Virus record (IMG/VR): IMGVR_UViG_3300008259_004339
Span: 1 to 64,000 of that record
From: an uncultured virus (IMG/VR IMGVR_UViG_3300008259_004339)
Lineage: Duplodnaviria > Heunggongvirae > Uroviricota > Caudoviricetes
Direction: 5' to 3' (one strand)
DNA length: 64,000 nucleotides
Shown here: piece by piece, positions 6,966-10,552 of the stretch
Numbering within the stretch: position 1 is the stretch's first letter
Layout of the letters: each line of letters opens with the position of its first letter
Position numbers and translations under genes: made by a program
The notes under the pieces: model-generated
Database searches by the model: none
What the model was told of the DNA's origin: nothing
The model's input: only the letters and a program-made list of their open reading frames with translations

Positions 6966-7041
6966 TGGTGGGTCAAACCGGACTTGAACCGATAACCAAA
7001 GAATTATGAGTTCTACGCTCTAACCATTGAGCTATTGACCC
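6966..7041 (-). tRNA. tRNA with CAT anticodon, Ile2-type (lysidine) more likely than Met
   Basis: GGGTCAATAGCTCAATGGTTAGAGCGTAGAACT-CAT-AATTCTTTGGTTATCGGTTCAAGTCCGGTTTGACCCACCA; canonical cloverleaf resembling bacterial tRNA-Ile2. Confidence 0.9.
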
Positions 7042-7064
7042 GTAAATACTTTTACTTTAAAAAA

Positions 7065-7157
7065 TGGTGGCTCCGTAGGGAATTGAACCCTATCAGCACC
7101 CAAATCTAGGGATTATACAGATTATAAGTCTGCCCATGCACCATACATCACAGAGCC
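7065..7157 (-). tRNA. tRNA with TAT anticodon (Ile) and long variable arm
   Basis: GGCTCTG/CGGAGCC acceptor, GCAGA-CT-TAT-AA-TCTGT anticodon arm, 24-nt variable region, TAGGG-TTCAATT-CCCTA T arm, ACCA end. Confidence 0.85.
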
Positions 7158-7170
7158 ATTTTAAAAAAAC

Positions 7171-7243
7171 TGGAGCGGGTCCGAACTTTGCATTTCGCCT
7201 TCTGATCTGGTAGACCAGCGTGCCCTCTTTACACTTGACCCGC
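7171..7243 (-). tRNA. tRNA-Gly(ACC), atypical T arm
   Basis: GCGGGTC/GACCCGC acceptor with U73 (Gly identity), CTGGT-CT-ACC-AG-ATCAG anticodon arm, T loop TGCAAA, TCCA end. Confidence 0.75.
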
Positions 7244-7253
7244 ATTTAAATTC

Positions 7254-7540
7254 AAATAGGAAGGACTAATGATTACCTCCAAGTTTCACAATATGCACCG
7301 TTATTCATCCACAATCCATAAAGTTAATTACTCTCTATGTTAACGATTGATGGGATTGGTTTCCCACAACGACCTACGATATATCATTTATTTTAGCTAC
7401 GATGTCGTTACGCTTGAATTATAGGTTGTACGACCCACAATCCGCCATAGACTTACACTGCACATTATTACTCCAACCAATAATGATTCTTCACCACTAT
7501 TGTGCGTTACCCCTATACAAAGGTTGTTCCGCCACTATCT
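7254..7540 (-). ncRNA. Candidate ~287-nt highly structured ncRNA
   Basis: ORF-free spacer between tRNAs; closing stem AGATAG/CTATTT, nested helices CACAATA/TATTGTG and GGATTGTGGGT/ACCTATAATTC, several hairpins; boxA motif directly upstream. Confidence 0.65.
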
Positions 7541-7541
7541 T

Positions 7542-7557
7542 AAATTGTTAAAGAACT
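7542..7557 (-). promoter_or_regulatory. rrn-type boxA antitermination motif
   Basis: AGTTCTTTAACAATTT versus E. coli rrn boxA TGCTCTTTAACAATTT; recurs before several RNA genes. Confidence 0.65.
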
Positions 7558-7566
7558 ATCAAAAAA

Positions 7567-7642
7567 TGGTGCCTATGACTGGATTCGAACCAGTACTACC
7601 GAAATTTTAAGTTTCGTGACTCTGCCGTTGGTCTACATAGGC
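7567..7642 (-). tRNA. tRNA-Leu(TAA) with short variable loop
   Basis: GCCTATG/CATAGGC acceptor, CGAAA-CT-TAA-AA-TTTCG, 5-nt variable loop, TTCGAAT T loop, ACCA end. Confidence 0.9.
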
Positions 7643-7644
7643 AT

Positions 7645-7660
7645 AAATTGTTTAAAGAAC
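7645..7660 (-). promoter_or_regulatory. boxA-like motif
   Basis: GTTCTTTAAACAATTT between the promoter at 7680-7707 and tRNA-Leu(TAA). Confidence 0.6.
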
Positions 7661-7679
7661 CATCACTTACTACTCTTTT

Positions 7680-7707
7680 ATCTTACCACATCATCTTCTG
7701 ATGTCAA
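7680..7707 (-). promoter_or_regulatory. Sigma70-type promoter
   Basis: TTGACA-N16-TAAGAT with GTGG immediately before the -10. Confidence 0.75.
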
Positions 7708-7723
7708 CTGCTTTTTCAAAAAA

Positions 7724-7800
7724 TGGTAGCTAGGGTCAGATTCGAACTGACACTGTACACTTTTTGAGAGTGCTGCCTCCTGCCTTTGGGCTACCTAGCC
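7724..7800 (-). tRNA. tRNA-Leu(CAA) with short variable loop
   Basis: GGCTAGG/CCTAGCT acceptor, GCACT-CT-CAA-AA-AGTGT, 5-nt variable loop, GTCAG-TTCGAAT-CTGAC, ACCA end. Confidence 0.9.
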
Positions 7801-7809
7801 ATTTAAAAT

Positions 7810-7918
7810 TGTTCTTCCAATGGATTTGCACCATCATTTACGATATGGAAGAGTTACCGTTAGACTTTCACGAATAGTAGAGTCATTATTAATGTTTCTC
7901 TACGCACGATATAGTTCC
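7810..7918 (-). ncRNA. Candidate small RNA ending in a tRNA-like minihelix
   Basis: GTAGAG/CTCTAC hairpin, then TCTTCCA/TGGAAGA acceptor-like stem enclosing ATGG-TGCAAAT-CCAT T-arm-like hairpin, ending ACAA. Confidence 0.45.
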
Positions 7919-7924
7919 TAAATT

Positions 7925-8018
7925 TGGTGGTTCCGCCCGGATTCGAACCGAGACCGTGCTCAAATCTAGAGCTTATCAACGTTATAAGCGTTGCGTTCTA
8001 CCGTTAAACTACGGAACC
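7925..8018 (-). tRNA. tRNA with TAT anticodon (Ile) and long variable arm, second copy
   Basis: GGTTCCG/CGGAACC acceptor, CAACG-CT-TAT-AA-CGTTG, 24-nt variable region with GCTC-TAGATTT-GAGC hairpin, TTCGAAT T loop, ACCA end. Confidence 0.88.
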
Positions 8019-8024
8019 ACTAAA

Positions 8025-8101
8025 TGGTAGCGGGGGAGTGAATTGAACACTCTACCTTCCGGTTATGAGCCGGACGATCTATTCCGTTGATCTACCCCGC
8101 A
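8025..8101 (-). tRNA. Initiator-like tRNA-fMet(CAT)
   Basis: TGCGGGG/CCCCGCT with 1:72 mismatch, TCCGG-CT-CAT-AA-CCGGA, overall similarity to bacterial fMet tRNA, ACCA end. Confidence 0.85.
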
Positions 8102-8124
8102 AATTTTTAAAAGAACATCAAATC

Positions 8125-8767
8125 TTATATCTTAGCTTTGTCTCTATCTCTTTCATATCCTTTAACTTCAATAAAGACATTATCATAATCTAATAATTTA
8201 AAGTCTGGAAAATATCTGTGGTAAGATTCATTCCAATAATATTGGAAATTTTCTTCAATCTTATTTGACCATCTTATATTATTTTTGTTTAAATAATCTA
8301 TTACCAATAATTCCCATTTACCAAGACAACTAGTTTCATTACCTAAACTATCTATAGTCTTAATTGTTTTAACTCTACCACAAACATTTTTACTAGAATA
8401 AGATTCTGGATTATCATCCACTGCTTTCTTCATTTTCAATGAATGTTCCAACCTTTTTTCTTTAGTCCAAACTTTCTTCTGTACTTAACTTAAAGTTTCT
8501 ACCTCTATAAATAGCCGCACATTTATTGCCACAAAAATATACTTTTTTTCGTTTTCTTTTTTTAGAAAACAAAATTATCTGATTACATTCACAGCATTTT
8601 AATGGATTTTTTTCATAATCATCAATAGAGAGTATAGTCCTTGATTTTGCAAAACATTGCAAACTACAATATTTTCTATTTCTTTCTCTAGCTCTAGAAT
8701 TGTATTTTATTATAGAACTACAAACATTACATTTATTTGGATTTAACAAGTATTCTTCTTCTGTCAT
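8125..8767 (-). mobile_element. Homing-endonuclease-like gene (Cys-rich N-terminus plus PD-(D/E)XK nuclease), split by a frameshift near 8455-8475
   Basis: ORF 8462-8767 has CxxC/YCS/FCGNKC zinc motifs; ORF 8125-8451 has KWE...YFPDF...FIEVKG; the second frame reads through as KVWTKEKRLEHSLKMKK. Confidence 0.65.
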
Positions 8768-8842
8768 ATCTAATATATATTAGAGAGCCAAACAAGAATA
8801 CATTTTATTTACACAAAAGTTAAAATTTCAAGGAACAATAAA

Positions 8843-8914
8843 TGGTAGCTGGTATGAGTGCTGCCCTCATTAAAGATTCCGTATGAAAGAATCTTGCTTG
8901 CTGAAGCCCCAGCC
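8843..8914 (-). tRNA. Atypical tRNA-like gene, CAT anticodon, extended anticodon stem
   Basis: GGCTGG/CCAGCT acceptor, GCTT-CAGC-AAGC mini D arm, 8-bp AAGATTCT/GGAATCTT stem with TT-CAT-AC loop, ATGAG-GGCAGCA-CTCAT T arm, ACCA end. Confidence 0.65.
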
Positions 8915-8922
8915 ATTACAAA

Positions 8923-8997
8923 TGGTCGCTCGCCTAAGAATCTCACTTAGTTACCAATGGTTATGAGCCATCGTCAAATAATAACCTGCCGCCAGCT
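8923..8997 (-). tRNA. Atypical tRNA-like gene, CAT anticodon (degenerate fMet-like)
   Basis: AGCTGGC/GCGAGCG acceptor with mismatches, CAGGT-TATT-ATTTG D arm, GATGG-CT-CAT-AA-CCATT, CTAAG-TGAGATT-CTTAG, ACCA end. Confidence 0.6.
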
Positions 8998-9128
8998 GTT
9001 TAAATTGTTTATAAAGAACTATCCTAAAAATTATGTTGGGTGTATCTATTGAATACTCTATCCACCCAACAAACAGAGTATACCATGCGCTAACCCCGCA
9101 ACCAAGAAGTTTTCAACCAAACATCAAA

Positions 9129-9204
9129 TGGTAGAGCCACAGAGAATCGAACTCTGATCTATTCCGTGAAAGGGAATTATCCTAAACCGTTAGACGATGA
9201 CTCC
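9129..9204 (-). tRNA. tRNA-Glu(TTC)
   Basis: GGAGTCATCGTCTAACGGTTTAGGATAATTCCCT-TTC-ACGGAATAGATCAGAGTTCGATTCTCTGTGGCTCTACCA. Confidence 0.92.
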
Positions 9205-9212
9205 GTTAAATG

Positions 9213-9426
9213 AACTGGTAATATTCATTGAGTTACTTATCTACGTAAGCATCGCTGTGTAGCGGACATTTTTCAGCACAGCACACAGTTGTGTTTGGGT
9301 TAATCATTTAATATGTTTAATGATGAAAGTCAAATTCTACACGGAAAAAATGCTTTCGTAATCAATCACGATACTTAAAAGTGTAGTTGTCCCACAATAT
9401 ATGATTTACTTCGTTTATTACCAGTT
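9213..9426 (-). ncRNA. Candidate ~214-nt structured ncRNA
   Basis: Fills the Lys-Glu tRNA spacer; perfect 11-bp terminal stem AACTGGTAATA/TATTACCAGTT; inner helices CTACAC/GTGTAG, CATATATTGTG/CACAACTGTGTG, TCGTGAT/ATTACGA. Confidence 0.6.
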
Positions 9427-9430
9427 AAAA

Positions 9431-9507
9431 TGGTGGCCCCGGTGGGACTCGAACCCACGACCAAAAGCTTAAAAGGCTTCTGCTACTACCAACTGAGCTA
9501 CAAGGCC
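9431..9507 (-). tRNA. tRNA-Lys(TTT)
   Basis: GGCCTTGTAGCTCAGTTGGTAGTAGCAGAAGCCT-TTT-AAGCTTTTGGTCGTGGGTTCGAGTCCCACCGGGGCCACCA. Confidence 0.93.
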
Positions 9508-9510
9508 ATT

Positions 9511-9528
9511 AAAATTTGTTAAAGAACT
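9511..9528 (-). promoter_or_regulatory. boxA-like motif in the tRNA operon leader
   Basis: AGTTCTTTAACAAATTTT directly upstream of tRNA-Lys, downstream of a GGGAG-AAGCA-CTCCT hairpin. Confidence 0.6.
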
Positions 9529-9598
9529 ATTACTTACAGATGTTCTAGAGGAGTGCTTCTCCCACCACGCTGAAAGAACAAATACTTACTACTTCTTT

Positions 9599-9626
9599 AT
9601 CTTACCACTAAGTTTTCAAAGATCAA
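9599..9626 (-). promoter_or_regulatory. Sigma70-type promoter of the tRNA operon
   Basis: TTGATC-N16-TAAGAT with GTGG; downstream sequence nearly identical to that of the 7680 promoter. Confidence 0.7.
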
Positions 9627-9743
9627 CTTCTTTTTTCAAGAAGTTTTGAGGTAAATTATAAATATATACAAATATTCGTAAAATTACCAAAAAGATTATT
9701 TTTTAAACTTCTAAGTTATACTTATAAGTAAATAACTTTTATT

Positions 9744-10469
9744 ATGACATTAGAAGATCAAAATAATAAATATAAAAATTGGTATTATCGTATAATACAT
9801 CATCGTTTAAACAATCCGGTTTTAAACCAATATACAGAAACACATCATATAATTCCAAAGTGTTTAGGTGGGTTAAATTGTTCATCGAATTTAGTTGAAC
9901 TGACTGCTAGAGAACATTATATATGTCACCTTTTATTAACTTCTGTATTTCCATCTTCTTCCGTAGAATATAAGAAAATGTGGAAAGCGTTTGCTTCAAT
10001 GGCTTGGTATAAAAGCGAAAATCAACTTAGAGAATACAAAATAAATAATAGAATTTATCAAAAATTAAAAATCGAATTCAGTAAAATTCAATCACAACAT
10101 CAATCCGGCACATCTAATAGTGGTTATGGAAAAAAATGGTATCACAATGTAGAATTAAAATTAAGCAATAAATTTTATCCAAACAAAGTTCCTAATGGAT
10201 GGGTTTCTGGTAGGGTTATTAACTGGGATAAGTATTTCCTTCCAAAATTCGATTCAAAAGAAACAGAATGTATTCGTTGTAAAAAAATATTTTTACCTAG
10301 AACTTCTGTTCACAAATACTGTACAACTACGTGTGCCGATAAACATCTTTATAATTCCGATACAAAGAAAATTATTATTGAAAAGAACGGTATTACTAAA
10401 TTGACCAAACGAGAAAATTTACATATGTATAAAAAATATGGATGGAATTTAATAGATAGGCTTTATTAA
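9744..10469 (+). mobile_element. HNH homing endonuclease
   Basis: YTETHHIIPKCLGG...NLVELTAREHYICHLLL; antisense insertion in the tRNA array. Confidence 0.88.
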
Positions 10470-10471
10470 AA

Positions 10472-10552
10472 TGGCGCTCCGGGAGGGACTTGAACCCCCA
10501 TTTTCATCCATTTATGCACTTAGGGCTTAGAAGACCCCGCCAGTACCGGAGC
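10472..10552 (-). tRNA. D-armless tRNA-Arg(TCT) with long variable region
   Basis: GCTCCGG/CCGGAGC acceptor, only TACTGGC in place of the D arm, GGGGT-CT-TCT-AA-GCCCT, 22-nt variable region, GGGGG-TTCAAGT-CCCTC, GCCA end. Confidence 0.75.

Follow-up and report, generated by a model that had tools for sequence, protein, structure and literature searches.

A polymorphic inverted-repeat insert in a tRNA spacer of a T4-like freshwater phage, linked to an HNH homing-endonuclease gene

Homing endonuclease genes are known invaders, and archaeal and animal tRNA introns are known to yield circles, being cut out by the splicing endonuclease and joined by RtcB. Homing partnerships with introns are likewise established. 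A free-standing endonuclease is paired with an endonuclease-less group I intron in the case of F-CphI and the psbA intron of cyanophage S-PM2, and again in the case of MobE and the nrdB intron of T4 (PMC2790892, PMC2988022); the insertion can interrupt the target of the enzyme (PMC2790892, PMC2988022). In the tRNA cluster of T4, the gene for the endonuclease SegB lies beside the tRNA-Arg gene; SegB has a tRNA intergenic region as its target (PMC2988022) and drives the preferential inheritance of the tRNA region (PMC2330249). The second of these sources also describes species I and II, non-tRNA RNAs that are cut from the T4 tRNA precursor. MITEs are known in phages too, although they are rare: such vMITEs are reported for a small share of phage sequences (PMC11602168).

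Here, we describe a 214-nt block inserted between the tRNA-Lys and tRNA-Glu genes of an uncultured phage, within a 64,000-nucleotide stretch of DNA that we refer to as the window. As in the F-CphI and MobE systems, a free-standing endonuclease gene is close enough for recombination to a distinct insertion that carries no gene and with which it is co-inherited, and the insert may split the enzyme's target here as well. Unlike the introns of those systems, the block is no self-splicing intron (no intron or ribozyme family of Rfam matched at E values up to 10) and stands between genes rather than inside one, from where it would be removed by tRNA processing. SegB sets a precedent for a free-standing homing endonuclease in a T4-like tRNA cluster; it is, however, a GIY-YIG enzyme, whereas the enzyme encoded in the window is an HNH enzyme of the Mob type, and for SegB we found no description of a partner insert with terminal inverted repeats. 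The block resembles vMITEs in being small and non-coding and in having terminal inverted repeats and a short flanking direct repeat, but it differs from them in being single-copy and confined to one fixed site, with no cellular or other viral copies found. Like species I and II, it would give rise to a non-tRNA RNA cut from a phage tRNA precursor; it is distinguished by its presence in only a minority of related genomes. With the tRNA-intron circles it shares a candidate circle, deduced from one contig, whose ends would be set by tRNA-processing enzymes; in contrast to those circles, these would be a bacterial host's RNase P and the activity that cleaves the 3' trailer. Full-text searches outside subscription journals brought up no account of a phage tRNA spacer that contains an inverted-repeat insert linked to a homing endonuclease or that gives rise to a circular RNA.

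The insert and its tRNA cluster

The window derives from an uncultured large phage with T4-type replication genes, including a family B DNA polymerase (phrog_262, E 1e-173) and a clamp loader, and encodes a virion protein ~30% identical to cyanomyophage and other marine phage proteins. Among GenBank phages, there was no near match to positions 1–25000, and a distant search with 8780–9620 matched the tRNA genes only. At least 88% of the sampled words of 8780–9700 were found in 14 DNA runs (seven studies), which are labeled as freshwater, lake, drinking water or "fungus" metagenomes. The tRNA cluster extends from 6966 to 10552 and comprises eight tRNA genes predicted by ARAGORN and one additional Rfam tRNA match, all of them on the minus strand (Table 1). 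Two of the calls, both tRNA-Ile(TAT) on the minus strand (7065–7157 and 7925–8018), are 93–94 nt long and thus longer than a standard tRNA.

Table 1. Positions in the window of the insert, its junctions and the neighboring genes
Feature	Positions	Strand	Details
tRNA-Glu(UUC)	9129–9204	minus	ARAGORN, Rfam; downstream neighbor of the block
Right junction CATTTAAC (sense)	9205–9212	minus	TTTAAC at 9205–9210 is the right repeat copy
Putative released RNA	9205–9429	minus	Spacer minus its first nt; 225 nt in the A type (window), 221 nt in the B type
Inserted block, 214 nt	9213–9426	minus	Perfect 11-bp terminal inverted repeats, arms 9416–9426 and 9213–9223
TTTTAAC	9424–9430	minus	Entire Lys-Glu spacer in empty relatives; last 6 nt are the left TTTAAC repeat
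tRNA-Lys(UUU)	9431–9507	minus	ARAGORN; Rfam 64.2 bits; upstream neighbor of the block
Promoter-like module TTGATC ... TAAGAT	9573–9642	minus	Upstream of tRNA-Lys; repeat family D3
Free-standing HNH homing-endonuclease gene	9744–10469	plus	241 aa; phrog_655, E 3.9e-36
tRNA-like gene	10475–10552	minus	Anticodon loop CTTCTAA, long extra arm; Rfam 31.4 bits; missed by ARAGORN

The spacer between tRNA-Lys and tRNA-Glu covers positions 9205–9430 (226 nt) in the window. Read on the tRNA-sense strand, it starts with TTTT followed by AACTGGTAATA (9426–9416) and ends with TATTACCAGTT (9223–9213) followed by CATTTAAC. Beyond these two arms, the 64-kb window holds no exact copy of the 11-mer. A perfect inverted repeat of at least 11 bp arose anywhere in the spacer in 2 of 300 mononucleotide shuffles, and the arms of the real one coincide with the termini of the block. 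The first-pass annotation had proposed a perfect 11-bp stem closing the whole spacer, which direct reading of the sequence confirms, as well as a set of internal pairings, all of which are present. Several of these pairings need G-U pairs, the TCGTGAT/ATTACGA loop has only 2 nt, and CTACAC occurs twice.

A scan of IMG/VR for both arms with the appropriate spacing yielded eight contigs, all with the arms at the Lys-Glu site. They represent two types, of which the A type comprises the window and four contigs that are identical across the block, and the B type comprises four contigs with 12 substitutions in the 214 nt and a right junction that is 4 nt shorter. We further collected related loci by scanning IMG/VR and metagenome contigs for the 3' end of the window's tRNA-Lys. 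IMG/VR contributed 16 related loci (plus three unrelated matches), eight empty and eight occupied, and the metagenome contigs contributed 26, of which 24 are empty and two occupied. Together, this gives 32 empty and 10 occupied loci among 42, a total in which contigs common to both collections may be counted more than once. Empty loci have only the 7 nt TTTTAAC or TTTTAAT between the CCA of tRNA-Lys and the start of tRNA-Glu, a spacing that ARAGORN confirmed in L009, L010, L013 and L056. Set against the empty TTTTAAC, the B type reads TTTTAAC, block, TTTAAC, with TTTAAC abutting the block on both sides, which amounts to terminal inverted repeats of 9–11 bp and a direct repeat of 5–6 bp. In the A type, to which the window belongs, 4 additional nt separate the block from the right TTTAAC.

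The block is hence an insertion, polymorphic among relatives, into the otherwise 7-nt spacer of a T4-like freshwater phage. It is no conserved spacer RNA, as 32 of the 42 related loci have the 7-nt spacer and no block. What the first-pass annotation had named as the opposing case was a MITE-like insertion with a target-site duplication, and the terminal inverted repeats together with a TTTAAC repeat resembling such a duplication are indeed found.

In an alignment of five occupied with 22 empty loci that reaches from ~210 nt ahead of tRNA-Lys to 230 nt beyond the junction, not a single column tells the two groups apart, and the insert is the only fixed difference between them in ~600 nt around the junction. 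Three empty loci (L010, L044, L061) have a tRNA-Glu that is 100% identical to that of the window across the aligned 85–97 nt, and in three others (L013, L026, L060) the first 45 nt of tRNA-Glu are as in the window, at 92% identity overall. The tRNA-Glu gene is highly variable and mosaic, with 10 different 5' strings over 43 loci (one of them in a truncated copy only) and with some variants that join the acceptor arm of one type to the anticodon arm of another; tRNA-Lys, in contrast, is near-invariant. The junction type and the tRNA-Glu type next to the block itself occur in four different combinations. In two loci (L039 and L040), tRNA-Glu has a degenerate look.

The promoter-like module 5' of tRNA-Lys recurs at 7654–7723, ahead of another tRNA block, and judging from its position and this repeat, tRNA-Lys, insert and tRNA-Glu should be made as one transcript. 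Further differences among the relatives concern the cluster around these genes. Between 9537 and 9538, a 103-nt hairpin-plus-promoter module, which the remaining 25 of 27 aligned relatives have and which also occurs in an RNA contig (X18 record 10), is missing from the window and L007. Just after tRNA-Glu, between 9113 and 9114, the window is without a ~70–75-nt hairpin module found in most aligned relatives (present in L001, L007, L051 and L010, in a shorter version in L002, and with a further, unrelated insertion within it in L014 and L050). L060 alone has ~120 nt inserted between duplicated copies of the -10 region upstream of tRNA-Lys, with a small ORF whose product would resemble a lipoprotein precursor (a hydrophobic start, then SGC). 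Downstream of tRNA-Glu, the minus strand of 8836–9010 resembles a tRNA(CAT) gene with a large internal insertion, with acceptor-like ends GCTGGCG ... CCAGCTACCA and an anticodon loop CTCATAA; it is called by neither ARAGORN nor Rfam and forms part of a "287-nt RNA" of the first-pass annotation. Two relatives, L013 and L056, carry a regular tRNA-Met of 79 nt at the corresponding position. The cluster also contains, at 8125–8451 on the minus strand, another small ORF of nuclease-like sequence (phrog_15137 endonuclease, E 1.7e-15), and the whole stretch of 8109–8829 is absent from the B-type contigs.

Of the features that define a MITE, the terminal inverted repeats are present, while several copies or a family at other sites were not found. 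Neither a search for the exact arms nor a sensitive blastn of the block revealed a second copy in the 64-kb window. Three internal 20–22-mers matched the same eight contigs in IMG/VR and, in addition, three chance matches (L034, L074 and L078), which we rejected as further copies since they are 20-mer matches within unrelated, G+C-richer coding DNA. In one genome for each of 185,579 species, the paired-end pattern gave two matches without inner likeness (L063 and L064), about the number expected by chance; both lie in bacterial coding DNA and were likewise rejected. IMG/VR contains no tandem DNA copies (right end, 4–24 nt, left end; 0 matches), and the window contains no transposase gene. These searches brought no second copy to light and thus do not establish the block as a classical MITE.

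Linkage to the HNH homing-endonuclease gene

The HNH gene lies 318 nt from the block, upstream of it and on the opposite strand, and its product shares 35–45% identity with proteins annotated as HNH homing endonucleases in T4-like and other large phages. All eight occupied loci with at least 647 nt of upstream sequence (the window, six IMG/VR contigs and L051) carry this gene, compared to none of the 24 empty loci with at least 488 nt upstream; two occupied contigs that start 43 nt upstream of tRNA-Lys and eight empty loci with a short flank were left out of the count. A protein-based scan of IMG/VR returned six close relatives of the HNH gene, every one of them in an occupied contig, and in the empty relatives a tRNA gene stands where the HNH cassette (~9694–10470) is inserted. 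The insert thus belongs to the same haplotype as the HNH gene and is strictly linked to it. These eight cases do not equal eight independent events because only two diverged lineages, A and B, are involved. The HNH gene is intact in both, with a dN/dS of 0.13 at a dS of 0.60, i.e., under purifying selection. The D-loop of tRNA-Lys differs between A and B and both forms occur among empty loci, so exchange has taken place between the HNH gene and the insert and has left the association unbroken.

The tRNA-like gene that adjoins the HNH cassette (Table 1) differs at four or more positions between carriers of the HNH gene and the non-carriers L009 and L011. The target of the enzyme could therefore lie in this gene, with the insert merely hitch-hiking.

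RNA contigs, divergence and folding of the insert

The element is present in RNA-library contigs of four runs from three studies (libraries that may contain DNA), which we compared with positions 8780–9700. Three contigs of 273–359 nt (X15 record 4, X16 record 6 and X19 record 14) run from within tRNA-Glu through the whole insert into tRNA-Lys, and their tRNA-Glu is of a third type, starting with GGTCTGTTCG. X16 and X18 also hold empty-site contigs, in which the letters of tRNA-Glu continue directly from 9424, and X15 and X19 contain short tRNA-Lys contigs beginning at 9424, which would likewise fit empty sites. Contig depth is higher over the insert and tRNA-Lys than over their neighbors, with some stretches uncovered, a pattern that can neither rank expression nor show absence.

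One contig (X18 record 9, 251 nt) reads 9345–9429, then four letters that equal the B-type flank, then 9213–9374. Its first 30 nt are the same as its last 30 nt, a pattern typical of a cycle that closes on itself in a k=31 graph, leaving a head-to-tail unit of 221 nt that corresponds exactly to the B-type spacer minus its first base. In the sense direction, the joint consists of the 3' end of the block, TTTAAC, TTTAAC and the 5' end of the block, and only one split of it fits the genomic flanks: the 3' end then falls on the nucleotide preceding G1 of tRNA-Glu, at the RNase P site, and the 5' end lies 1 nt after the CCA of tRNA-Lys. We rejected other readings of this joint. A circle or tandem formed by recombination between the repeats would carry one TTTAAC, whereas the joint has two; in a transposon circle the nucleotides between the abutted ends would come from one side, whereas the 7 nt found here come from both flanks; and in an integron-like reading, prompted by the GTTRRRY look of TTTAAC on the opposite strand, the cassette circle would carry one core copy and not two.

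These findings indicate a discrete RNA with tRNA-processing ends. The joint could be that of a true circle, or that of a linear RNA whose ends were joined by template switching of the reverse transcriptase, and was seen in one of the four RNA runs. The RNA contigs in the four runs support a place for the block in the tRNA transcription unit, and the joint seen in one of them fits the release of an RNA upon processing of the flanking tRNAs that the first-pass annotation had put forward, so that its interpretation is upheld in part. Among 68 ORFs of the window, which leaves about two-thirds of the ~180-kb genome outside, Pfam searches at E values up to 1e-4 returned no RNA ligase, RtcB or polynucleotide kinase. 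The element does not classify as a viroid-like replicon, its sequence being encoded in phage DNA contigs and matching no ribozyme.

With its 12 substitutions, the insert is 94% identical between A and B. By comparison, the HNH gene has a pS of 0.41 (dS 0.6) between them, and the neighboring non-coding DNA is 85–87% identical. At the rates of this non-coding DNA (13–15%), the probability of 12 or fewer differences in 214 positions is 1e-5 to 6e-4, and the insert is ~7 times less diverged than the synonymous sites of the HNH gene. Across five variants (A, B and three from RNA contigs), 13 of the 214 positions vary. This low divergence points to constraint or to recent exchange and, given such conservation, an RNA function of the block's own is possible.

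In folding predictions, the block appears only modestly better than chance overall. The linear sense strand reaches a z of -1.8 (11 of 200 shuffles fold as well) and the antisense strand -3.3, and the predicted circular fold reaches -1.6 for the A type and -2.6 for the B type. Variable columns are paired in 7 of 13 cases, compared to 58% of all columns. Among the five variants, we found no convincing covariation, as no pair of the consensus fold changes on both sides; in a hand-picked helix of columns 85–90 with 165–170, one pair occurs as G-C, G-U and A-U, and another pair is lost in two of the five variants. At gathering thresholds, Rfam matched only tRNAs in the whole window, and at E values up to 10 the matches in 8700–9700 were weak and implausible. 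The covariance models of Rfam 15, including those for self-cleaving ribozymes, HEARO, Y RNA-like RNAs and tmRNA, gave no match in the block. The ribozyme role once considered for it thus finds no support in any Rfam family, and nothing points to the other two roles suggested at the time, a protein sponge or an anti-defense RNA. Two short ORFs were rejected as coding. The sense ORF of 24 aa is shortened to 15 aa in the B type, and the antisense ORF of 21 aa (9313–9378) has TTG in place of its ATG in the B, X18 and X19 variants and loses its stop in all non-A variants.

Possible origins and consequences of the insert

To account for these observations, we favor, at what we consider roughly even chances, that the block is an intron-like passenger of the HNH homing endonuclease that is removed by tRNA processing. 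The endonuclease would cut genomes without the pair, and repair would copy the HNH gene and the insert together, as in trans or collaborative homing. By splitting the enzyme's target at the Lys-Glu junction, the insert may render its carrier immune. The four combinations of junction and tRNA-Glu types fit repair tracts that extend from a break at this junction, and would thus make the insert the immunity determinant. The insert would be free of cost because RNase P, acting 5' of tRNA-Glu, and the 3' processing of tRNA-Lys would excise it like an intron; since the block sits between two tRNAs and tRNA-processing enzymes would remove it, no splicing would be needed. The 11-bp closing stem could fold the block and bring its ends together, so that the released RNA of 221–225 nt could be ligated into a circle. 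Taken to its full extent, this scenario describes a gene-less, intron-like selfish insert that splits the target of a neighboring homing endonuclease, is excised by RNase P and tRNA 3' processing, and is closed by a ligase into a 221-nt circle that may be functional; we regard this complete chain as unlikely. Several observations run against the passenger account. The tRNA-like gene at the HNH insertion site also differs and could hold the target, neutral joint descent does not predict 12 differences in 214 nt at a pS of 0.41, and the linkage stems from two diverged lineages only. The head-to-tail joint, too, comes from one of four RNA runs and could equally be produced by template switching between linear RNA ends, and homing does not explain the transposon marks, namely the terminal inverted repeats and the flanking repeat.

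These marks suggest a transposon-like insertion as the origin of the block. That it is a classical MITE, a non-autonomous DNA transposon brought into the spacer by a transposase of host or phage with a target-site duplication of 5–6 bp, and linked to the HNH gene through physical proximity, would agree with the perfect 9–11 bp terminal inverted repeats exactly at the block ends, with TTTAAC (or TTTAA) on both sides in the B type, with the small size of a block in which no ORF is conserved between variants, and with the rare occurrence of such elements in phage genomes (PMC11602168). We nevertheless consider it decidedly improbable, given a single copy in the window, in the IMG/VR search with internal 20–22-mers and in the paired-end search of 185,579 species genomes, always at the same site, with the A-type repeat 4 nt away from the block and no transposase in the window. 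A tentative proposal, possible though less than probable, is that the insert is kept for a structured and perhaps circular RNA of ~221 nt, acting as a decoy, a sponge, a regulator of tRNA processing or an anti-defense RNA, with the linkage being secondary. The slow divergence of the insert relative to the HNH gene and the non-coding DNA, the few variable positions among the five variants, the presence of the RNA in libraries with a joint at processing sites and the G-C, G-U, A-U series in the candidate helix speak for this, as do species I and II from the T4 tRNA precursor (PMC2330249). Against it, 32 of 42 related loci do without the block, Rfam has no match, the sense-strand fold has a z of only -1.6 to -2.6, pairing is no rarer or commoner in the variable columns than in all columns, the candidate helix loses a pair through a different change in two of five variants, and recent exchange can also produce low divergence. 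The passenger, RNA-function and MITE accounts are not mutually exclusive. In the reverse course of events, the spacer would originally have been long and would have shrunk to 7 nt through a precise deletion between the TTTAAC copies, which, as 6-bp direct repeats, would leave the very sequence of the empty sites. This course is nonetheless highly improbable, as empty sites are found with at least seven types of tRNA-Glu and with either D-loop type of tRNA-Lys, the long form is restricted to HNH-bearing haplotypes, and the A-type junction would delete less simply to the empty form observed.

Even if the passenger account is wrong, the block represents an uncommon case of a transposon-like insertion that has become fixed in a lineage of lytic phages. 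If the released RNA is a true circle, it would be a natural circular RNA with RNase P-defined ends in a bacterial system, of interest to RNA biology and circular-RNA engineering, and the first DNA-encoded circular RNA from the tRNA spacer of a bacterial virus. If the passenger account is correct, homing endonucleases can pair with inserts other than introns, using tRNA processing as a free form of "splicing". This would widen the range of routes by which selfish DNA settles in phage genomes and would explain why the tRNA clusters of large phages are hot spots for homing endonuclease genes.
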